From IMG/VR virus record IMGVR_UViG_3300042890_002891, positions 32,001 to 96,000 of that record: a stretch of DNA of 64,000 bases. One strand, written 5' to 3'. Shown here in pieces: positions 39,354-59,025 of this stretch. This stretch comes from a virus (Duplodnaviria; Heunggongvirae; Uroviricota; Caudoviricetes). Both the position numbers and the translations under genes were made by a program. The stretch's first letter is position 1; each line of letters opens with the position of its first letter. The notes under the pieces were generated by a model. The model was not told where the DNA came from, did not search any database, and was given only the letters and a program-made list of their open reading frames with translations.

Positions 39354-39457
39354 AGATACCTTTCTGTTAAAATACTATTGTACAACTATTTACTATAGGA
39401 GTCAACTATAAAATGATATTTTTCAATTGTAAATTCCTATTACATCAATAGGTCAAG

Positions 39458-39480
39458 AAAAAGCCCACCGAAGTGGGCTG
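39458..39480 (-). terminator. Intrinsic terminator, copy 2 (ends tmRNA)
   Basis: Identical to 38746-38768. Confidence 0.85.
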
Positions 39481-39803
39481 ATTGCTATTTTTGATTACAA
39501 GGTATAACTACCTCGTTTGGCGTCAAGCGTTAGCTGCTACCAAATATTGTGAGTCATTTGCATTTCTCTTTTTTGTGTCTACGGCCGAGCTTCCCCAACC
39601 CTAACGGCTTCTACATTGCCGGACTGTCCATTTCTGTACTCTTAACCCTGTCGAAACTATGCAGGCCCATTATAAAGAATACTACTGAATTGTGTTGGAT
39701 GTTGCCATCCGCAAAAACCTGTGCAATATTCTTTATGGTGGACCTGGGGGGATTCGCACCCCCGTCCAGAATCCTTTTCTGTCTACTTCATACAGTCTTA
39801 ACT
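39481..39803 (-). ncRNA. ssrA: Circularly permuted (two-piece) tmRNA
   Basis: Acceptor piece with T-arm GGGGG-TGCGAAT-CCCCC and CAGGTCC-A-CCA (3' end 39736), hairpin intervening segment, coding piece starting GGGCCTG (39668) giving G3.U70; tag ORF 39561-39523 ANDSQYLVAANA*; outer ends approximate. Confidence 0.92.
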
Positions 39804-39808
39804 GTTAT

Positions 39809-40693
39809 TTATTTTAATGAGTTAACTGAGTCTTCCCAGTCTTGATTGAATGTTGACATTTTTGTATCCCACTCAAACTTCATTCCACTACCTTCCCAAA
39901 TTTTAGCAGTGTTTGAATTGGGATTCTGATGTACAGCCTTCATAGCAGCCTGAATCTTGTTGCGTTGTGCATCAGTTGCGTTCTTCAAGATAAAAAGCAC
40001 ATAGTAGCCGACCTTGAGATTTTTGTTGGCAAGATCTTTTGCAGCCAATGGAATCAAGGCATCAGCTGACGATGGGCTCATACGATACATGCATGTGCCG
40101 TTGCCTGACTGTGCAAATTTTCTTGCCAGCTTGCTTTCAATGATACCGTAGTCAACTTCACCGTTTAGCAAAGCAGTGATAGTGCTTGGACTGCCAGCAG
40201 CAAAATGCACAGGTTTGTGAGTGGTCTTGAATGACGCATTGATTCCGTTGTTGATGCTATTGACCATCACACTAGCAGGAATGGCATGTCCAATCCTGTA
40301 CGATGATCCAGCTGTGACCATACGGGCAGCATTCATTTCTGGTTTGGCTGAACAGATATAGTAAGAGTCATAGTGTACACGAATCAATTCTTTTTCGGTA
40401 AATGTCATTATATTGCAAGAGCCTTGTTTGCGGATACCGGCGTCTATGTCGCCTGCCCAGGGAAATAGCACAGGCATATTTTTATCTATTTTGTCAATAA
40501 CAGCCGTTGCCAGGCACCCAGATCCTGGGTTGATGTAGTCAATTTTGAATTGGTTCTGCAGATCCTGGGTCAATGCACTGGTCTCCAGATAGAACCCACC
40601 TGTTTTTGAGCCAGTGTTCACAATGGTGATGTCCTGTGCCGCAGCAGCCAAGGTCATGGTTGCAAACGCAACCAACGCTAGTAATTTCTTCAT
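39809..40693 (-). CDS. Tripartite tricarboxylate transporter substrate-binding protein (TctC/Bug-like)
   Basis: Signal peptide, GSKTGG, PGSG, ALLNGEVD; adjacent to TctA. Confidence 0.6.
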   Translation of the reverse strand: MKKLLALVAFATMTLAAAAQDITIVNTGSKTGGFYLETSALTQDLQNQFKIDYINPGSGCLATAVIDKIDKNMPVLFPWAGDIDAGIRKQGSCNIMTFTEKELIRVHYDSYYICSAKPEMNAARMVTAGSSYRIGHAIPASVMVNSINNGINASFKTTHKPVHFAAGSPSTITALLNGEVDYGIIESKLARKFAQSGNGTCMYRMSPSSADALIPLAAKDLANKNLKVGYYVLFILKNATDAQRNKIQAAMKAVHQNPNSNTAKIWEGSGMKFEWDTKMSTFNQDWEDSVNSLK

Positions 40694-46264: not shown

Positions 46265-46355
46265 TGGCGGAAGGCTAGAGAGTTGAACTCTAAAGGCGCT
46301 ATTAACGCTCGGCTGTTTTCAAGACAGATCCCATCGCCAATTGGGTTGGCCTTCC
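46265..46355 (-). tRNA. tRNA-Ser(TGA)
   Basis: Long variable arm, G73-CCA. Confidence 0.92.
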
Positions 46356-49746: not shown

Positions 49747-49947
49747 ATATAGGTGCTCTCTGTGGCGCTTGAATCCACGGTAGCCCTGCTCTTCCTGGCA
49801 CTTGTTCACACGCCGCGGGCTAGTGAAGTTCAGTGTTGTTCCAGTGTAGCTACTACAGAAAGCATTTATATAATACCATAGAAAAACACACTTGGCTCCC
49901 CTTGGTTGTTTGTATCTGTCAATTCAGATTGAAAGTGCGTTTATCTA

Positions 49948-50023
49948 TGGTAGGACCACTCGGACTCGAACCGAGGATTTACAGGTTAAAAGCCTGATGT
50001 TATAACCGCTTAACTATGATCCC
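49948..50023 (-). tRNA. tRNA-Lys(TTT)
   Basis: Cloverleaf, CCA. Confidence 0.92.
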
Positions 50024-50455: not shown

Positions 50456-51940
50456 TTACCTAAATGTTGGCAAATACTTCTCATCCGTAACTAGTTCAAG
50501 TAATCTTCTTTTGTATTCTGATAGAAACTTATGGGGAGGAGTAGGTTCTTTTTCATAAAAGAGACTACCTGTGTTACTTTGCAGATCATTATATTTTTCA
50601 ATGAGTCGTTGAGCTTGGAAAAAATTCATTTGGTCATTTTCCCATATTACAAAATTATGATGTGGTGCGTTGGGCATTTCGCGGTATCCAAATTTTGCAT
50701 AATCTTTGGTGATACTGCTTTCAAATACTGCGCCGTTTGCTTTTTTACCAATTATTAATGGTCTAAAGGCGAACGAGTCTAATTTTATTTCACGTGTACT
50801 CAACGCCTTCAGAGTGCGCTCAGCTGATTTAATTGTTTCGTAAGGAGTTCCAATTATAAAACTGCCATGCAGATTCATGTCATGGTATGTTTCTTTAATG
50901 GTTGATATCATTGCAATTTGTTTTTCTCTATTATAGCCTTTACCAACAGCTTGTCCACTTTTTCTATCCAACGTTTCTATACCAAAAAACATTGATCTTA
51001 CTCCAATATCGTATAACATATGAATAGTTTCGGGATGAGTGCAAATCAAATCTAATCTTGCATAACACCAGAACTCAGGTTTAAATGGCAACGATACTAT
51101 CATGTCTCTTAACTGCACAAGTTTTTCAACTGAATCGTTGAAAGTGTCATCTACTATCATGTAAATACAAATTCCATGATTGTTATAATTATGCAATAGT
51201 TCTTGTTTCAGTGTGGCAGCATCTTTAATAAAATCTAGTTTGGTCTTACCGTTCATAGGGTACGAACAAAATGCACAGCTGAATATGCATCCTCTGCCAA
51301 TTTCGATAGGTAATCTGGTATGATTCACAACGTCTTCAGCACACCATGTCATGGTATCCTTTGAAAATTCGTATCCTTCTGCAAGCACATTGTTGATGAT
51401 AATCTTGTTGTTGTTGATATTTTTATAGCTATTTTTTAATACAACACCGTGTTTTATGTGATCAACCAAATTTACTATGTTTGCTTCAGCGTATCCCAGC
51501 ACCAGGAAATCAGCATACTTGCATCGTAATTCTGGTCGTACTATCGTACCTCCTGCGACAATTTTTATTGCAGCATTCAACTTGTTGATGTGTGCAAACA
51601 CTTGATCATCAAAATCTGCTCCTTGCGGAAATAAATTAAAATTTTGTCCATGAATATTAGAATTAGATCCAGCCGTCGGCCCAGTTGCAACACTTGTAAT
51701 CAAATCATAGAATGTGGTGCTAAACCCTATCATGCATGTGTCTGACCCTACGGCACGATTTAATAATGTATAAATTTCATCAATAGTAAACTCGGACACA
51801 TGATTCACTACTAAACAAGAATACCCACTGGCACGCAGAGTATTTGCTAACTTGTATGCGCCAATAGCAGGAATAAATACTGAGTCATTAGGATTTCTGC
51901 GAACTATATCAGTAAAAAGAATAACATTAAAATTTGGCAT
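50456..51940 (-). CDS. B12-binding-domain radical SAM protein
   Basis: IEIGRGCIFSCAFC, DDTFN, FFGIETL, SFIIG.P.ET. Confidence 0.85.
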   Translation of the reverse strand: MPNFNVILFTDIVRRNPNDSVFIPAIGAYKLANTLRASGYSCLVVNHVSEFTIDEIYTLLNRAVGSDTCMIGFSTTFYDLITSVATGPTAGSNSNIHGQNFNLFPQGADFDDQVFAHINKLNAAIKIVAGGTIVRPELRCKYADFLVLGYAEANIVNLVDHIKHGVVLKNSYKNINNNKIIINNVLAEGYEFSKDTMTWCAEDVVNHTRLPIEIGRGCIFSCAFCSYPMNGKTKLDFIKDAATLKQELLHNYNNHGICIYMIVDDTFNDSVEKLVQLRDMIVSLPFKPEFWCYARLDLICTHPETIHMLYDIGVRSMFFGIETLDRKSGQAVGKGYNREKQIAMISTIKETYHDMNLHGSFIIGTPYETIKSAERTLKALSTREIKLDSFAFRPLIIGKKANGAVFESSITKDYAKFGYREMPNAPHHNFVIWENDQMNFFQAQRLIEKYNDLQSNTGSLFYEKEPTPPHKFLSEYKRRLLELVTDEKYLPTFR

Positions 51941-52989: not shown

Positions 52990-53024
52990 AAAAGAAAAAA
53001 CCCTGGAGTTTTTAGTTCCAGGGT
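52990..53024 (-). terminator. Attenuator terminator 2
   Basis: ACCCTGGA-9 nt-TCCAGGGT-TTTTTCTTTT. Confidence 0.85.
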
Positions 53025-53051
53025 CTTTTGAATTTGCGGATGTTAACTTAG

Positions 53052-53180
53052 TTACTCATCACACCTCTCAAGAGATCCCGGAACGCCTGGAATACTATTC
53101 ATGCGACCATACGCATGTGACCAGGCGGATACCTGGGTAAACATGGGTTTCGTCAACAGTGAACAGAGAGTTGTTTTCAT
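53052..53180 (-). CDS. Putative attenuator leader peptide 2 (MKTTLCSLLTKPMFTQVSAWSHAYGRMNSIPGVPGSLERCDE)
   Basis: Between a consensus promoter and a terminator; 3' codons contain an antiterminator arm. Confidence 0.7.
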   Translation of the reverse strand: MKTTLCSLLTKPMFTQVSAWSHAYGRMNSIPGVPGSLERCDE

Positions 53181-53190
53181 CTTAAATCCT

Positions 53191-53219
53191 ATTATACTTT
53201 ATTTATCATTTGATGTCAA
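53191..53219 (-). promoter_or_regulatory. Consensus sigma70 promoter with embedded TAAATA late box
   Basis: TTGACA-tcaaatgaTAAATAaag-TATAAT. Confidence 0.85.
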
Positions 53220-53266
53220 CCACCAAAGATAACTTCGTGTGAAGTATTTATACTTCACGGCCAAAA

Positions 53267-53340
53267 TGGTTGCGGGTGACAGATTTGAACTGCCGATGCT
53301 CCTGGCTTATGAGACCGGAGTGGTGACCACCCTACCCGCT
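53267..53340 (-). tRNA. tRNA-Met(CAT), initiator-like, reduced D-arm
   Basis: 1:72 mismatch, GCGGG acceptor, A73-CCA. Confidence 0.78.
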
Positions 53341-53362
53341 AAATTATTTATCCTATGCGTGT

Positions 53363-53391
53363 ATTATACAACACATTTGATTTGTTGTCAA
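53363..53391 (-). promoter_or_regulatory. Consensus sigma70 promoter for tRNA-Met
   Basis: TTGACA-17-TATAAT. Confidence 0.8.
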
Positions 53392-53633
53392 CCAGGTTTG
53401 GATAAGCTGATCATGTGACTGCCATACGTTTAAAAGTGTTGCCACCTTCCTGAGCATGAGTTGACTGTGACTATCAGTCTCGTACCTTTAAACGTCAGAG
53501 GTTCAGGATTTAATCGTTGTCCCTGGCAGTTGGGCCCATCGTCAATGAGTTTTTCCGCCACATGATCTGCTTAAACTGTAATTATCTGTTTGCTGTAGTG
53601 CAACCATATAAATAATTCACAACGGAGTCATAC

Positions 53634-54341
53634 ATGGAATACAAAACAATTTATCGTGGCAAAGAACTTCCTTTTGCGGATTATTTTGAAAGCAAAAAAG
53701 CCGGTCTGGTAGCAGAATTTCTAGCACAGTATCCTGACTTCTCTAGCACAGAAGTGCTGAACAATTCAGAGATCATGCAAAACAAGATCACTGCCAAAAT
53801 TTCTACCACCCAGGGCAGAGGCACTGCTTGGAAATTGCTACAGGTCAAAGGCAACTACTACGGTGAGCCTCCTTACTATGGTTCACAACCCTTTGAAGAA
53901 TCAAAGTCGAAATTTCCAACCATGATAAGCATCATTGATTATTTTGGATTTGATAATCTTGGCAGCGTGACCTATTCTGTACTGGAAGCCAACGGCATCA
54001 TTGCCAGACACACAGGACCTGAAAATCGTGCAGGTAAATTTATTCGTTGCCACATACCTTTGATTGTACCCGAAGGTGATCTGGGTATGGAGATCAACGG
54101 AGAAGTAGTTGACTGGAGTGAATCCTTTGGATTCAACAATCAAATCATACACAGTGTCTGGAACAACACTGATTATCGTAGACTGGTATTGATGATTGAT
54201 ATAAAACGCTCGTACATTGGGTTGCCTGATGCGCCTCCGTGGACAGAAGAAACAAATGCTGATGCAGTTCCTTTTGAAAAGACTCACAACAAAGTGACAT
54301 ATGGCCCTCAAGAGATTATACCAGCAGTGAACTTGAGATAA
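53634..54341 (+). CDS. Aspartyl/asparaginyl beta-hydroxylase domain protein, copy 1
   Basis: I.RHTG, IRCHIPLIVP, FNN..IHS.WN.TD.RRLVLMID; TATAAATA at 53607-53614. Confidence 0.85.
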   Translation: MEYKTIYRGKELPFADYFESKKAGLVAEFLAQYPDFSSTEVLNNSEIMQNKITAKISTTQGRGTAWKLLQVKGNYYGEPPYYGSQPFEESKSKFPTMISIIDYFGFDNLGSVTYSVLEANGIIARHTGPENRAGKFIRCHIPLIVPEGDLGMEINGEVVDWSESFGFNNQIIHSVWNNTDYRRLVLMIDIKRSYIGLPDAPPWTEETNADAVPFEKTHNKVTYGPQEIIPAVNLR

Positions 54342-54350
54342 CTCTGTAGT

Positions 54351-55028
54351 ATGAAACTCCAAACAATTTATCGTGGCAAAGAACTTCCTTTCGTGGATTT
54401 TTTTGAAAGCAAAAAAGAAGATCTCATAAAAGAATTTCTAGTACAATATCCTGAATTCCACAGTATCGAGCCGTTGCATAATTTAGACCTCTTGCAAAAC
54501 AAGATCACAGGGGCATTGGGCAATAGAACCCACCCTGGATCTCCTTGGGAAATATTGCAAATCAAAGGTACTTATTTTGGCGAACCTCCATATTATGGCT
54601 CACAACCCTTTGAAGAATCAAAGGCAAAATTTCCAACAGCAACAAGTATTATTGATTATTTTGGATTTAGTGTCGTTCGGTCAATTTCGTATTCGGTTCT
54701 GGAACCGCACAGTACCATAGCCAGACACTGGGACCATGAAAATCATGAAGGCAAATTCATACGTGTTCATGTACCCTTGATTGTGCCCCATGGTGATCTG
54801 GGCTTAGAGGTCAATGGGGAAGTGGTTGATTGGAGTGAATCCTTTGGCTTCAACAACCTAAGATTACACAGCGCCTGGAACTTCACGGACCATCGTAGAC
54901 TGATATTATTACTTGATCTAGAACGCTTGCATCTGGGGTTGCCTGATGAGCCATCCTGGTCCGAAACAACCAATGCTGATACCGTACCCTTTCCCAAGAC
55001 ACCTGTTTTTTTATCAAAGCGCAATTGA
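54351..55028 (+). CDS. Aspartyl/asparaginyl beta-hydroxylase domain protein, copy 2
   Basis: Tandem paralogue; RHWD, IRVHVPLIVP, LHSAWN. Confidence 0.85.
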   Translation: MKLQTIYRGKELPFVDFFESKKEDLIKEFLVQYPEFHSIEPLHNLDLLQNKITGALGNRTHPGSPWEILQIKGTYFGEPPYYGSQPFEESKAKFPTATSIIDYFGFSVVRSISYSVLEPHSTIARHWDHENHEGKFIRVHVPLIVPHGDLGLEVNGEVVDWSESFGFNNLRLHSAWNFTDHRRLILLLDLERLHLGLPDEPSWSETTNADTVPFPKTPVFLSKRN

Positions 55029-55035
55029 TCTAAAC

Positions 55036-55127
55036 TGGTACCAGCGGAGAGGATCGAACTCTCTCAAGAACGCTAATCTGGCGCTAAAAGGTGTATAAGA
55101 CCTCTCTGACTACCAAGTCTCGCTGGC
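55036..55127 (-). tRNA. Unusual tRNA with TAT anticodon (Ile AUA), long variable arm, 4-nt D-loop
   Basis: 7-bp acceptor, GAGGT-CTTATAC-ACCTT, canonical T-arm, CCA. Confidence 0.8.
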
Positions 55128-55132
55128 ATGCA

Positions 55133-55206
55133 TGGAGCGGGATAAGAGAATCGAACTCTTGACTGGAGATTGGAAATCTCTAATTTTGCCATTAAACTAA
55201 TCCCGC
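55133..55206 (-). tRNA. tRNA-Gly(TCC)
   Basis: Cloverleaf, U73-CCA. Confidence 0.93.
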
Positions 55207-55216
55207 ATGAATTGAA

Positions 55217-55439
55217 TTTGAGAGCCTACGCCGCGTTTATCGTAGATTTATTCAGGACTTACCGGCCGCCTAGCCTGACCTCGAGCACGATGGATATCAC
55301 TTGGGCTCCGTCCAGTACAGTCCCCATTACGGACCTCCGCAGTTGCCCGCGGGTGGGAGTTGAACCCATTAACCTTTTACTGCTTTGGTCCTTCGAAGAA
55401 ACCTAGACAGCGTGACTTCACTTGCTGACACTCTCAAAA
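55217..55439 (-). ncRNA. Candidate structured RNA (~220 nt)
   Basis: Closing stem TTTGAGAG/CTCTCAAA, T-loop GGG-TTCAACT-CCC, several hairpins. Confidence 0.5.
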
Positions 55440-55637
55440 CTAAAAATGTAGTAGGCTGAGACATAACTCAATTGGTTTGCGCTTCGATGTTTAACGCCAT
55501 TAAAGGATCCGCAACGCCATTTACTCCGGCACCAGGCCGGAACTACAAAAAAGGTTGAGCAGCAGAGGACTTGCACCTCACAGTAACTAGTATAGGAGAC
55601 TTCCGTCTCTACTGCATCTATGCTCTACTCATAAAAT

Positions 55638-55718
55638 TGGTGGACCCCGTCGGTACTTCGCCGCACTCCTAGTTCAGTAACGTTACTTCTGAACCAACGC
55701 ATCTCACGTTGAGAGCCC
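55638..55718 (-). ncRNA. tRNA-like RNA with G3.U70 and CCA but no normal anticodon arm
   Basis: GGGCTCT/GGGGTCC-A-CCA. Confidence 0.55.
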
Positions 55719-55783
55719 ATAAACTAATCAAGGGCTTGTAGACCAAACTACAATTTACCGGTTTCTAGACGAACCCCTAAACT

Positions 55784-55859
55784 TGGTGGGCTATCGAGGA
55801 CTCAAACCTCGCAACATCTCTATGTCAAAGAGACAGGATTTCCAATCACTCTAAAGCCT
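55784..55859 (-). tRNA. tRNA-Val(GAC), degenerate
   Basis: Good anticodon and T arms, mismatched acceptor, CCA. Confidence 0.6.
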
Positions 55860-55865
55860 ATTATT

Positions 55866-55979
55866 TGGTGGAGACAGCCTACACACATGCACTACACACC
55901 TGTGCCGTCCACTTTATCCGCTGGTCTCAGCAGTCGCGCCGTTCTAGCAGCGCCTTGCACAAGATCAGTTTCAGTCTCC
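55866..55979 (-). ncRNA. CCA-ended non-cloverleaf RNA (114 nt)
   Basis: GGAGAC/GTCTCC-A-CCA. Confidence 0.5.
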
Positions 55980-55985
55980 GAAAAT

Positions 55986-56156
55986 TGGTGATTAGTGCTG
56001 CTGCGACACAGCGACATCCCCGGAGCGAGAGCGTAGGAACTGAATCTACGGGTTTAGCACCTCCGGGGTCGAACAGTCAGGACAACTACTGGTACCGTAC
56101 TTGCTGACACTTGTTCAAGGTGTGTCGCGTTTTTGTACTTTCATTTCCAACTAACC
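55986..56156 (-). ncRNA. CCA-ended structured RNA (171 nt)
   Basis: GGTTAGT/ACTAATC-A-CCA; internal GCGACAC/GTGTCGC and CCCCGGAG/CTCCGGGG helices. Confidence 0.55.
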
Positions 56157-56629
56157 ATATAGAAACACACTCAAAACTGCTGTTAAACCCTTGCAGGGGC
56201 ATGCCTAGTTAAAAAATGTGTTCTTATATGGCTGGCAATGTTATGAGGGCTCTTACCCCATCGTTGTTTGTATAGGCTGCGCGACCTATACATCCCGGAC
56301 ACACTCCCTGACCCGGCAATGCTTACTTTGTGGCTCTTGCTTTCCACTTGATTCTGATCATATAGAAACACACTAGAGTTTTACGATAAACTACGCTCCT
56401 GAGTTTCTGCTCAGGACCCCATAGGTCTGCCTATGTTTCTAATGTGTTTTTATATAACAAAATAGTGAACAGGATTTGCACCTGTGCCCACAGCCTGTTG
56501 ACAAGACTGCACTCTCCTACTAATCTACCACCATATAGGAACACACTGGCACTCAATTGTCAATTGCAGAGCATAATAATTCTACGCCCTATGAGTTACG
56601 CATACTCTTCCAATGTGTTTTTATATGGT
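56153..56629 (-). repeat. Three copies of a conserved-stem/variable-loop hairpin (56153-56233, 56359-56457, 56530-56629)
   Basis: TATA(A)RAACACATT ... AGTGTGTTYCTATATG on the minus strand. Confidence 0.75.
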
Positions 56630-56688
56630 ATAGTAAAAACGTAATGGTTACGATTCCATTGCTACTTGATCATGTAGCCGATTTTGTT

Positions 56689-56763
56689 TGGCGCCACGGA
56701 CGGGAATCGAACCCGTCTTGGTCGGATAGACAATCCGTTGCCCTCCCAGAGAGCTACCGTGGC
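56689..56763 (-). tRNA. tRNA-Asp(GTC)
   Basis: Cloverleaf, G73-CCA. Confidence 0.9.
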
Positions 56764-56769
56764 AAAACT

Positions 56770-56844
56770 TGGTAGAGCATAGCGGAGTCGAACCGCTCTT
56801 AGTGGACTGAAAACCCACTGTCCTAACCGATAGACGAATGCTCC
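56770..56844 (-). tRNA. tRNA-Glu(TTC)
   Basis: Cloverleaf, CCA. Confidence 0.9.
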
Positions 56845-57122
56845 ACTATATGAAAACACACTTATTCAGGAACGTGCTGATCAAACACAAGAGAGCTACT
56901 CTTGTGCCCATCCGCTGTCATTACTGTCCACATGTTCCGCCGCTTGTCCAGATCAACTGATTTCTCAGTGAGAGCCTATTTCATGCCAGCGAGGGAGTAG
57001 CCTGCTAAGGCGGGGTTCAAACCCATAATCCTGATTCACTTGCCTAACGGTGTGGATAACCTGTATAACTGTGCTTACATATAGTGCCCAGAACCAAATC
57101 TGGGTACACTATACAAAATCAA

Positions 57123-57310
57123 ATTTTTAACGAACTCTTCACACTGTGTCAATGCACTGTGCTGCTTTCTAACTAGTCTCTAGTATAACATGTTATGCAA
57201 TACTGGTCAACCTGTTTTGCAAATGCCCCGCTGTAGTGTAGGGTCTTTGCAAAATCTGCTGTTCTCCTGTCTCTTGTGTGTATTATAGCACTAGACTGAA
57301 TAAGAGTCAA
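57123..57310 (-). promoter_or_regulatory. Tandem sigma70 promoters plus boxA-like element heading the ncRNA/tRNA operon
   Basis: TTGACT-17-TATAAT (57310-57282), TTGACC-17-TATACT (57210-57182), GTTCGTTAAAAAT (57135-57123). Confidence 0.7.
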
Positions 57311-57317
57311 CCGCCAT

Positions 57318-57340
57318 AAAAAAACCCGCTTGCTGCGGGT
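57318..57340 (-). terminator. Attenuator terminator 1
   Basis: ACCCGC-AGCAA-GCGGGT-TTTTTT. Confidence 0.85.
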
Positions 57341-57366
57341 CTTTGAAGGATGCGTTTTTGATCACA

Positions 57367-57456
57367 TCAACAAAGACCCAGGCTCCCGTCACGCTCATAG
57401 GCCATCCCCGAATCAATTGTCGGTATGACTGCTGAGAGGATAGTGAGCCGGTTCAT
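57367..57456 (-). CDS. Putative attenuator leader peptide 1 (MNRLTILSAVIPTIDSGMAYERDGSLGLC)
   Basis: TAGACT-17-TATACT-6-ATG; last codons carry GGGTCTTTG, complementary to the terminator foot. Confidence 0.7.
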   Translation of the reverse strand: MNRLTILSAVIPTIDSGMAYERDGSLGLC

Positions 57457-57516
57457 AAGTGTAGTATATATGCCTTTGCGACAAAAGTCTATTATTTTGG
57501 CAAAATTTGTGGTGGT

Positions 57517-58080
57517 TTAGTCTGAGACCACTGACCATCCTAGACGAGCAAGGTCTTCACGTATCTCATCAGTGACCATGCCCTCGCCCACATGTGCTTG
57601 GCTTTCCCGGTGGAACGTCTGCTGCTCTTGTGTGAGCATGTTCCATTCAGCCTGTTCTAGTGTGGCAGTATCCCTGATGCCTGAACAGTACCAGTCAATG
57701 TAGTCACCTTCGCCCCGCATGTTGGCCACAATGCCACCAGCCGATCGCCATGTACAGGCCCAGGTTTGATCTTTCAGTATGGTCCACACATCTTGTTTCT
57801 GGAACGTGTTGTTGCACAGGGCAGCATAGAGATTTTGAGCATACACTCTGCTTTCGCAAACCTTGGCCACCATCCAGTCGGTGGTACGCATGTCAAATTC
57901 CATGTTGTTCTTTTGCCATTCAGCATTGACTAGATTTTCTTCATCTCGAAGTGCCCAGCTTTCGTACATTTCAAGCATGGCCTGCACCTCAGGATCGTCG
58001 AGACTCTGGCCCGCTTCTAAACAACCTTCAATGTACTTTTGCTTTTGAAAAGTGTGACGATCAGGACTGGCGGAAATCAT
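57517..58080 (-). CDS. Hypothetical phage protein (YAQNLYAALCNN...GDYIDWYCSG)
   Basis: 187-aa ORF. Confidence 0.8.
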   Translation of the reverse strand: MISASPDRHTFQKQKYIEGCLEAGQSLDDPEVQAMLEMYESWALRDEENLVNAEWQKNNMEFDMRTTDWMVAKVCESRVYAQNLYAALCNNTFQKQDVWTILKDQTWACTWRSAGGIVANMRGEGDYIDWYCSGIRDTATLEQAEWNMLTQEQQTFHRESQAHVGEGMVTDEIREDLARLGWSVVSD

Positions 58081-58331
58081 TGCAGGATTCTTGTGTGGGA
58101 ACCAGATTCAATACTGTCTAGGGATTCTGCCAGTCGTTGTGCCAGTTCGGGATCAGATTCAGTCAGCTGTTCAAAATCTACTGCATGACTCGTGGCCGCA
58201 AGGTCTTCGGCTGTCATGTTCTCAAACATGCTGTGAATTTCAGCCATCAAGAGATCCAGTTCCTCTTGAGTTCCTTCAAAATCGTCAAAGCAGCCTGGGG
58301 CAAATTGCACTTTTAGTGGTTGATCAGTCAT
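58077..58331 (-). CDS. Hypothetical acidic protein
   Basis: FAPGCFDDFEGTQEELD. Confidence 0.7.
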   Translation of the reverse strand: MTDQPLKVQFAPGCFDDFEGTQEELDLLMAEIHSMFENMTAEDLAATSHAVDFEQLTESDPELAQRLAESLDSIESGSHTRILQ

Positions 58332-58342
58332 ATGTTCTTTCA

Positions 58343-58420
58343 TGGTGCGGTGGGCGGGATTCGAACCCGCACTGTACAGATTTTAAGTCTGTTGTCTCCT
58401 ACCTATTGCACTACCACCGC
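58343..58420 (-). tRNA. tRNA-Leu(TAA), short variable loop
   Basis: Cloverleaf, CCA. Confidence 0.88.
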
Positions 58421-58427
58421 ATTGCTC

Positions 58428-58502
58428 TGGTCCGGCGTGACGGAATCGAACCGCCATGTACAGGGTAGAAACCTGCTATATTATCCATTATATGAACGCC
58501 AG
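58428..58502 (-). tRNA. tRNA-Arg(TCT)
   Basis: Cloverleaf, CCA. Confidence 0.9.
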
Positions 58503-58507
58503 ATACT

Positions 58508-58582
58508 TGGTGCGACTCCTTGGTTTCGATCCAAGTACCAAGACCTTATGAGGGTCCTGCTCTCCCATTGAGCTAGAGTCGC
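58508..58582 (-). tRNA. tRNA-Met/Ile2(CAT)
   Basis: Cloverleaf, CCA. Confidence 0.88.
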
Positions 58583-58591
58583 TATTTTTAC

Positions 58592-58620
58592 ATTGTAACA
58601 GGAAAGTTATTTAGTGTCAA
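58592..58620 (-). promoter_or_regulatory. Sigma70 promoter with embedded TAAATA
   Basis: TTGACA-cTAAATAactttcctgt-TACAAT. Confidence 0.75.
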
Positions 58621-58624
58621 CAGA

Positions 58625-58819
58625 TTATTTCACAGACAGCAACGCCTGTAGATCCTGAATTTGTTTTTGCAAACGCTCAATTTCTGCGGCTGCTTCATCC
58701 AAGAGATCAGCAATACGGTCAGTCTCACCTTGTTCCACACTTCTGCGTCCAGGAATCTGTCTGCGTATCTCGGCTCGCTTGCGTAATCGGTACACCAGAC
58801 CTTGTTCTTGCAAGGTCAT
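58625..58819 (-). CDS. Hypothetical protein
   Basis: LVYRLRKRAEIRRQI...DRIADLLDEAA. Confidence 0.75.
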   Translation of the reverse strand: MTLQEQGLVYRLRKRAEIRRQIPGRRSVEQGETDRIADLLDEAAAEIERLQKQIQDLQALLSVK

Positions 58820-59025
58820 GATTCGACTCCAAAATGTTTTTTAATTCTTTGTCCAGTTGTTTGTGTGACATATCCACACCCAGCCGAAGTATTTCTTTCA
58901 ATATCTGCAACTTGGGCACATTCCTGAATCAGTAGTTCAGCAAACTTTTCTAGTGTTCGACCGCCCACGTCAGGATAGTGGCTACCGCCAGCCGCCAGGG
59001 CCAGTTGTTTAATTTGTTCGTTCAT
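58816..59025 (-). CDS. MNE(R/Q)I...KFAELI..EC...HFGVE family protein
   Basis: Family motifs; start moved to 59025. Confidence 0.75.
   Translation of the reverse strand: MNEQIKQLALAAGGSHYPDVGGRTLEKFAELLIQECAQVADIERNTSAGCGYVTQTTGQRIKKHFGVES

Follow-up and report, generated by a model that had tools for sequence, protein, structure and literature searches.

Conserved non-decoding RNA families with tRNA-like ends in the tRNA arrays of uncultured phages, and their possible maturation by host tRNA enzymes

What occupies those parts of a phage tRNA array in which units that are not tRNAs follow one another at tRNA-like distances and end as tRNAs do? We addressed this question in a 64,000-nucleotide (nt) stretch of DNA (the window), which comprises bases 32001-96000 of the 261,673-base-pair (bp) viral contig IMGVR_UViG_3300042890_002891 from IMG/VR, the record of a giant freshwater phage, with an estimated completeness of 75%. 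A preliminary description, made from the letters of the window, had pointed to a tandem series of RNAs at about 55555-56156 that have acceptor stems and CCA ends and are not transfer RNAs (tRNAs). We found that two of these units, named U1 and U2, belong to conserved families of structured RNAs that are encoded on the tRNA strand and absent from Rfam 15, and we consider it probable, at roughly 60%, that the units are passenger non-coding RNAs of the phage tRNA operon, which would be released by the host enzymes that make tRNA ends through mimicry of the tRNA top half. In the order of the minus strand, the units are:

55986..56156, minus strand: U1, 171 nt, with a 7-bp acceptor stem, a stacked 5-bp T-arm-like helix, A73 and CCA, read from sequence and family.
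55866..55979, minus strand: U2, 114 nt, with the terminal stem GGAGAC/GUCUCC, A-CCA, a helix P2 and the core CGGAUAAAGUGGACGGCA.
55784..55859, minus strand: degenerate tRNA-Val(GAC), called by ARAGORN only.
55719..55783, minus strand: sp66, a 65-nt element without CCA, in which a hairpin module of ~52 nt lies between two AGUUUAU-type spacers.
55638..55718, minus strand: U3, 81 nt, predicted from sequence and fold to be tRNA-shaped and non-decoding, with G3.U70, A73 and CCA.
55553..55631, minus strand: U4, ~79 nt, predicted to be tRNA-shaped and non-decoding, with the 7-bp stem UGAGUAG/CUGCUCA.

ARAGORN called 29 tRNAs and a permuted transfer-messenger RNA (tmRNA) in the window, all on the minus strand, most of which were confirmed by Rfam. 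N73-CCA is encoded by 30 of 30 window tRNAs, and neighbouring genes are separated by A/U-rich spacers of 3-10 nt. The non-tRNA units sit in a 2.5-kilobase (kb) stretch without plausible genes (57517-55036), where the minus strand from 56156 to 55553 is tiled by U1, U2, Val(GAC), sp66, U3 and U4, co-oriented with the tRNAs. The spacers U1/U2, U2/Val(GAC) and U3/U4 measure 6, 6 and 6 nt, so that U1, U2, Val(GAC), U3 and U4 obey the spacing rule of the window tRNAs; the tiling is tRNA-like, as had been described, and the acceptor stem, A and CCA at the ends of U1, U2 and U3 can be read directly in the sequence. Rfam searches of the window, of 53000-59000 and of 55540-56170 at gathering and E-value thresholds gave no match for U1-U4 or Val(GAC), with noise only in the unit region (RAGATH-11 at 13.7 bits, and Xist). 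The tRNA model RF00005 matched none of the five units in 55540-56170 at E<10 and ARAGORN called only Val(GAC) among them, in agreement with the view that U1, U2 and U3 are not decoding tRNAs.

Among GenBank phages, a blastn search (word 11) of 55200-56900 against 50,697 phage records including T4 matched only tRNA-Glu and tRNA-Asp, and by BLAST no U1-U4 homologue was present in the first 80 loci, which were collected via a neighbouring protein of 187 amino acids. With a conserved hairpin arm as probe we retrieved ~120 related tRNA arrays, which held one U1 homologue and one U2 homologue, and the full families were recovered by probing with the invariant cores of U1 and U2, the final locus counts being taken from nhmmer. 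The relatives of the contig came from viral and metagenome contigs.

The U1 family numbers 62 loci, with one copy each, all on uncultured viral or metagenome contigs, and its alignment (A9) contains 45 sequences, 43 of them distinct. U1 of the window ends GGUUAGU...ACUAAUC-A-CCA with 7/7 pairs formed, and in the 43 distinct sequences 99.7% of the cells of the acceptor stem are paired. Among these sequences pair 2-71 occurs as five types (UA, UG, GC, GU and CG) and covaries, and pair 3-70 alternates between C-G and U-A in 43/43 and is never G3.U70. The 5-bp T-arm-like helix, which abuts the 3' acceptor strand, covaries at 5/5 pairs and carries a loop of 6 nt with the conserved, non-canonical sequence GUCRYA. 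Taking all U1 pairs together, 94.5% of the cells are paired and 13 pairs are altered on both sides; the covariation score is 0.220 compared with 0.100 in shuffles, none of the 500 shuffles reached the observed value, and sliding the partners by 1-3 columns lowered the pairing to 28-41%. Since many of the pairs are G.U and U.G, the structure belongs to the strand that encodes the tRNAs. Selection acts on both the acceptor helix and the T-like helix of U1. NCCA is encoded in 35 of the 43 distinct sequences, U1 begins 5-7 nt past the CCA of the preceding gene in 31 of them, and the 7 + 5 stack with its NCCA is a tRNA minihelix. UGGAAA, which follows the acceptor stem, and the UC of the T-like loop show little or no variation, and together they could form an elbow resembling that of a D-loop and T-loop.

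Within the body of U1, a 4-bp hairpin covaries at 4/4 pairs, and its loop UGAACA is complementary to an invariant downstream UGUUCR, with which it can be predicted to form a pseudoknot. A further hairpin sub-domain, P3, is nearly invariant and contains a tandem A.A, which is replaced by C-G/G-C in the clade of the window. P3 is also present in a different, larger RNA behind another tRNA, where CCC/GGG becomes CGG/CCG; therefore the inner part of U1 (its cargo) and its tRNA-like end (its handle) are separable, and P3 is a module. The nested GC helices noted in the preliminary description are, as they stand in the minimum-energy fold of U1, only partly conserved, and the long-range GC helix of that fold is not kept in the family. 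Among 185,579 species-representative prokaryote genomes searched with the invariant U1 19-mer there was no U1 copy, the sole exact match being an unrelated sequence of a metagenome-assembled Clostridia genome with no U1 context. As a candidate, we also considered a conserved reading frame starting at the AUG after GGAA, and rejected it because in several members a stop ends it within 3-9 codons (9 in the window and 3 in L213).

The U2 family comprises 15 loci by nhmmer. Its closure, GGAGAC...GUCUCC, consists of 6 pairs, followed by U.U and then by G-C, and both this terminal stem and the core CGGAUAAAGUGGACGGCA are invariant across the family. Helix P2 (CUKAUC/GAYMAG) has changes on both sides at 4 pairs (alignment A6, RNAalifold), and two variable sites around the invariant core hold unrelated hairpin inserts, the second of which covaries in its hairpin. 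ACCA is encoded in 7 U2 copies, about half, and the rest have A-UCU or A-AUU together with a U-run, the next tRNA lying ~10 nt off. U2 is a real family with a tRNA-like position and end, but one that mimics tRNA in the stem and base 73 only. That the homologues of both U1 and U2 covary, and that neither family resolves into a known Rfam family or into decayed tRNA genes, upholds the preliminary description on these points; the two families are selected as genes and hence are not broken tRNAs.

U3 (GGGCUCU...GGGGUCC-A-CCA) closes with 7 pairs, three of them wobble pairs, and begins with G1-C72, G2-C71 and G3.U70. It has a 4-bp D-like arm, a degenerate T arm with the loop CGAAGUA and, at the place of the anticodon arm, an arm of 7-8 bp with the loop AAGUAACGUUA, so that both the G3.U70 and the long arm noticed earlier are present. 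The same 11-nt loop recurs in a 137-nt family with a canonical T arm (L233 and others), and sits on the stem GUUCAG/CUGAAC in U3 and on UGGG/CCCA in the 137-nt family, some members of which have the variant loop AAGUGAUAUCA, which is palindromic as well; the palindromic loop is compatible either with closure of a tetraloop by three additional pairs or with a kissing loop. U4, for which a T-arm-containing unit had been claimed, turned out to hold more than that, namely the 7-bp terminal stem, a GGAA-capped 5-bp hairpin and the T-like arm GAGG-UGCAAGU-CCUC. Its pair 3-70 is A-U and not G3.U70, its odd T-loop recurs in an anticodon-less unit at 56534-56461, and its 3' end reads A-CC-U followed by a U-run (CC then U6) in the window and A-CCA in the relative L305. 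Val(GAC), described from the outset as degenerate, has a good anticodon arm and T stem, the mismatches A1.C72 and U6.U67, the T-loop UUUGAGU, ACCA and no Rfam tRNA match at E<10; its sole other copy, in L273, is identical, and from these features it looks like a decaying or strongly derived tRNA. Diverged homologues of U3, U4 and Val(GAC) were found neither in ~320 loci nor by direct probe, and relaxed BLAST gave nothing at E<50. A scan of viral contigs with a 17-mer of U3 was discarded, as its four matches were chance matches in unrelated sequence without U3 context.

The borders of these units are also visible in the way in which they recur. U3 is 100% and U4 98.7% identical in L273, L275, L305 and L314, and in L305 both flanks of the U3-U4 block are unalignable, the identity extending from 9 nt before U3 to the end of ...CUCAACC, with CCA, where the window has CCU, right past the end of the identity. 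The modules follow the order U1-U2-Val(GAC)-sp66-U3-U4 in the window and in L273, and U1-sp66-U3-U4 in L275 and L314, and in L305 a tRNA-Leu and other sequence follow U1, with U3-U4, a different unit and then an RNA that we call X further down. The borders of identity and the differences in module order show that the predicted RNA ends are cassette borders, at which modules are exchanged between arrays.

The element sp66 occurs in 38 viral contigs, always directly after the CCA of another unit, and it undergoes compensatory changes in helix 1 (GGGG/CCCU to AGAG/CUCU to AUGAG/CUCAU) and in helix 2 (UUGUAG/CUACAA to CUGUAG/CUACAG). What follows it varies by contig, and is a tRNA, a mimic, X or a sigma-70-like promoter. 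This suggests that sp66 is a 3'-end or processing element and not part of U3, and hints that it marks the end of a transcription unit.

How such units might be made depends also on two features at the borders of the region:

57282..57310, minus strand: sigma-70-like promoter (TTGACT, 17 nt, TATAAT plus extended TG) upstream of the whole stretch, from a consensus scan only.
55036-55127, minus strand: Ile(UAU) tRNA, 92 nt, with a long extra arm, 87-97% conserved in ~30 related arrays.

The Ile(UAU) tRNA is unusual in shape among isoleucine tRNAs. A scan of the minus strand from the promoter to 55036 detected no terminator-like site with a U-run tail. We propose that the region from ~57300 down to 55036 would be transcribed as one precursor, including tRNA-Glu, tRNA-Asp, tRNA-Gly and the 92-nt Ile(UAU) tRNA, and the presence of a strong sigma-70-like promoter upstream counts for this part. 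Each passenger would bear a tRNA top half as its handle: in U1 the 7-bp acceptor stem coaxial with the 5-bp T-arm-like helix, the unpaired base 73 and the encoded CCA; in U2 the terminal stem and base 73 only; and in U3 and U4 a whole tRNA shape with the anticodon loop replaced. Host RNase P would cut the 5' end, and the enzymes that trim tRNA 3' ends would halt at CCA, giving discrete RNAs with protected ends that are released in step with the tRNAs. The inner domains, which cannot decode, would perform work specific to each family, the putative cargo of U1 being its pseudoknot together with the hairpin that has the tandem A.A, that of U2 its invariant core CGGAUAAAGUGGACGGCA, and that of U3 its palindromic loop.

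Several points weigh against this proposal. For the units, the common transcript, the cuts by RNase P and at the 3' end, the stability of the products and their action in trans are inferred; moreover, the handle explains maturation and not function. The 3' terminus is not uniform, with CCN or no CCA in 8/43 U1 sequences and no CCA in about half of the U2 copies. At the other end, a conserved-stem hairpin precedes U1 in the window and extends with its 3' arm over the first two bases of the unit, the 5' end of which may thus be made by another route, for example by RNase III. The terminal stem of U2 never varies; covariation therefore lends it no support, and selection may act on its sequence instead of its pairing. 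U3, U4 and Val(GAC) are known from near-identical copies only, and their folds are without covariation support. Lastly, single-sequence folding energies of the units (z = -1.0 to -1.5) are no better than those of shuffles, and we dropped them as uninformative.

Other roles of the tRNA-like ends have to be weighed against the passenger proposal. Toxins that attack the acceptor end of tRNA include nucleotidyltransferase and pyrophosphokinase toxins, which modify the 3' CCA, and acceptor-stem nucleases, and the CCA-ended top-half mimics might act as decoys or sponges which soak up such toxins or compete with processing and charging enzymes. The selected parts of U1, namely acceptor stem, base 73, CCA and stacked helix, speak for this role, as does the situation of the units in a region devoted to translation upkeep, with a full tRNA set and a tmRNA, and decoys are compatible with the passenger proposal. 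However, conservation in U1 and U2 is strongest in the inner cargo domains and not at the ends, a pure end-decoy needs no cargo, and with no anticodon loop the units would leave anticodon nucleases uncovered, so we regard a decoy role as unlikely. It is very doubtful that U3 and the 137-nt family are aminoacylated non-decoding carriers, charged with alanine by the host alanyl-tRNA synthetase (AlaRS) through G3.U70 and A73, in the manner of tmRNA and alanine minihelices, and that they then deliver or sequester alanine, EF-Tu or ribosomes. U3 shares its first three pairs and its discriminator (G1-C72, G2-C71, G3.U70, A73, CCA) with the phage's own tRNA-Ala. The four full-length rows of the 137-nt family (L233, L265, L248 and L211), with the acceptor GUGG...CUAC, keep G3.U70 and A73-CCA while pairs 5-7 vary, and the anticodon-less unit at 56534-56461 has G3.U70 too; Francklyn and Schimmel reportedly found in 1989 that minihelices with G3.U70 are AlaRS substrates. 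On the other hand, U1 (U-A or C-G at 3-70) and U2 (A-U) have no G3.U70, a wobble pair at 3-70 is weak evidence in a U3 stem that has three of them, and the anticodon-less unit has no CCA. No gene for a phage CCA-adding enzyme, AlaRS or SmpB was found in the 262-kb contig, the latter two absences also counting against charging. Alanine charging is plausible, as judged from identity elements, for U3 and its relatives only. The broader idea that giant freshwater phages possess a toolkit of tRNA-top-half RNAs, of which the G3.U70/A73/CCA group (U3 and the 137-nt family) would be alanylated and act as carriers or decoys on translation or on defences directed at tRNA ends, seems quite unlikely to us; if true, phages would have in them a new class of RNAs for counter-defence or for the control of translation.

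A different possibility is that the units act in cis as structured spacers, which would set the order or timing in which adjacent tRNAs are processed, or shield the precursor, and would be degraded once cleavage has taken place. The units do occur only inside tRNA arrays with one copy per locus, and sp66 and the adjacent conserved-stem hairpins look like processing or 3'-end elements; nevertheless, conserved, covarying cargo domains of 100 nt and the reuse of P3 in another RNA are hard to reconcile with a spacer, and an encoded CCA marks a finished RNA end, which makes this explanation very unlikely. That the units are functionless, either decayed tRNA genes or chance stems, we hold to be highly improbable. 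Stems followed by CCA are indeed frequent by chance: the combination of a 7-bp closure and NCCA yielded ~45 spurious cases in 16 kb, too many for use as a unit detector, which we dropped. U3, U4 and Val(GAC) have no diverged homologues, and Val(GAC), whose acceptor stem has two mismatches, whose T-loop is damaged and which Rfam does not score, agrees with decay. Yet three chained units are expected by chance at ~7 in 10,000 (a rough estimate from pairing odds), U1 and U2 are conserved with compensatory changes, and U3 and U4 are 99-100% identical in contigs whose flanks have diverged past alignment. The observation goes beyond chance because of the tiling and, chiefly, because of the homologues; neither decay nor chance can account for U1 and U2, and such an explanation stays likely for Val(GAC) alone. 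Taken as a whole, the interpretation in the preliminary description (mimics matured by RNase P and 3' trimming, possibly charged, and acting as decoys or as partners of repair enzymes) is partly supported.

The same stretch of the array contains further non-tRNA elements:

55446-55549, minus strand: unit of 104 nt between U4 and X, with GUAGU/ACUAC as its closing stem, A-UUUUU behind it and no CCA.
55211-55441, minus strand: X, an RNA of ~230 nt without CCA, between U4's neighbour and tRNA-Gly, with no Rfam match.
56235-56357, minus strand: Y, 123 nt, between two conserved-stem hairpins.
56461-56534, minus strand: the tRNA-like anticodon-less unit (Rfam tRNA, 35 bits), with A1-U72, G3.U70, no CCA and the T-loop UGCAAAU.
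56155-56231, 56358-56456, 56530-56629, 56844-57086 and 49876-49950: conserved-stem hairpins, with a stem of 16-27 bp around unrelated inserts.

In L305 an unrelated unit takes the position of the 104-nt unit. X is conserved in ~30 loci, the copies being 72-94% identical; there is covariation in its terminal stem (UUGAGAGU/GCUCUCAA versus UUGUAAGU/GCUUACAA versus GUUAGAGU/ACUUUAAC), and its interior has an anticodon-like arm with the loop CUUCGAA and a canonical T arm (GGGUUCAACUCCC). L007 and L085 share the 5' end (AAUCAAGUGGAAAGCAAGAGCCACAAAGUAA) and the 3' end of Y but differ from it in between, and copies in L305 and L273 are 97-98% identical. Homologues of the anticodon-less unit (L101, L112 and L198) have loops of 2-4 to 9 nt on their 'anticodon' arm, and it therefore does not decode. 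The conserved-stem hairpins have GUGUGUUUCUAUAUGG and its complement in their stem, which reads CCAUAUAARAACACAUU ... AGUGUGUUUCUAUAUGG, and within the 262-kb contig the motif is confined to the tRNA region, on which ground we rejected a genome-wide promoter as its identity. U1 and other units share their first two bases with the 3' arm of such a hairpin, and some inserts are 92-96% conserved in other contigs; the hairpins may serve RNase III-type processing, or may package small RNAs in a second way. A conserved stem of this hairpin type encloses the sp66 core in L242, and in L236, L247, L248 and L233 a near-consensus sigma-70 promoter (TTGACA, 17 nt, TACAAT) lies downstream of sp66 or of the 137-nt unit. 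Further non-canonical units are carried by the arrays of L008 (7640-7770), L209, L222, L253 and L260, among them a long hairpin of 59 nt ending in CCA, a tRNA-like unit of ~68 nt with the 8-nt loop AUUUGAAG, whose anticodon stem covaries (UCAG/CUGA to UUGG/CCAA), and a class-II-like unit of 95 nt after sp66.

Elsewhere in the window there are:

39432-39828, minus strand: the permuted tmRNA called by ARAGORN.
46265-46355, minus strand: a class-II Ser(UGA) tRNA of 91 nt with the anticodon loop CUUGAAA, between tRNA-Cys and tRNA-Phe.
50456-51940, minus strand: a radical-SAM/B12-binding gene.
53634-55028, plus strand: two adjacent genes of the Asp/Asn beta-hydroxylase family (PF05118), on the opposite strand amid the tRNA region.

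The Ser(UGA) tRNA, which ARAGORN did not call, has 7 Watson-Crick acceptor pairs and G-CCA, and scores 39.9 bits against the Rfam tRNA-Sec model, under the cut-off.

If the handle model is right, phages would express many small RNAs from one promoter with host tRNA enzymes only, and annotators are warned that gaps in phage tRNA arrays would be genes. A tRNA end on a foreign body within a tRNA array, as in T4 RNA C and RNA D, is a widespread and diverse design in uncultured giant phages, and cargo and handle are swapped as cassettes at the RNA ends. Two uncatalogued RNA families, U1 with 62 loci and U2 with 15, are ready for covariance models, and they hold enough sequences to define structures and pick conserved cores. 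Should the charging or decoy readings be right, the units would bear on the conflict between phage and host over tRNA.

Compared with canonical tRNAs (RF00005), the units have in common the acceptor stem, base 73, CCA, spacing and strand, as well as, in U3 and U4, a predicted four-arm shape, whereas a 7-nt anticodon loop on a 5-bp stem is found in the degenerate Val(GAC) only. The YrlA-type Y RNAs of bacteria and phages and the present units are both non-decoding and have a tRNA-like module; in YrlA this module is internal and the Ro-binding stem is built from the two ends of the RNA, whereas here the tRNA-like module is terminal. The Y-RNA-like partners suggested in the preliminary description find no support in this opposite topology, nor in Rfam, where the units matched no Y-RNA model; searches of the 261,673-bp contig with PF05731 (TROVE/Ro) and PF01139 (RtcB) also gave no match while control genomes were positive, although in a contig that is 75% complete absence is not proof. 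A tRNA module serves as the handle of an unrelated RNA in recombinant tRNA scaffolds, in the tRNA-like/microRNA genes of murine gammaherpesvirus 68 (MHV68) and at the mascRNA end of MALAT1. Here the handle is used alike, but those cases are eukaryotic, viral or engineered; in the literature searched there is no description of a natural set of handle-bearing families in bacteriophage tRNA arrays, or of these phage families, and U1 and U2, their structures, the separable P3 and the cassette exchange are found neither there nor in Rfam 15.

The tRNA-like top half of tmRNA directs the processing of its 5' end by RNase P (PMC3985003). Both tmRNA and U1 end in a 3' CCA and have a large body closed by an acceptor stem together with a T arm, or in U1 a T-arm-like helix, with pseudoknots in the body of tmRNA and a pseudoknot-capable cargo in U1. 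In contrast to tmRNA, U1 has no G3.U70 and no tag frame conserved in the family, and its T-like loop is a non-canonical one of 6 nt; neither ARAGORN nor the Rfam tmRNA models matched U1, and the phage has a permuted tmRNA of its own at 39432-39828. Among known cases, T4 RNA C and RNA D come closest; they have been known for some fifty years without a function. These small RNAs from the tRNA region of T4 (species 1, rnaC, 139 nt; species 2, rnaD, 119 nt) are of unknown role (PMC3014915, PMC9697503). In the T4 record rnaC and rnaD share the strand of the tRNAs and stand in tandem behind tRNA-Arg, with only a few bases between them and the next tRNA; rnaC has a canonical T arm before its 3' strand, and rnaD ends GCGC-A-CC, with A as the next base. 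The T4 RNAs have been shown by experiment, whereas the units here are predicted from sequence, and there is no sequence similarity between the two by the blastn search of 55200-56900 against phage records. The location in a tRNA cluster, the strand and the spacing are common to both, and in both, U1 and U2 being the counterparts here, a tRNA-like terminus is placed on a body that is not a tRNA; the cargo domains differ, and here one array carries several such families, which are exchanged as cassettes.

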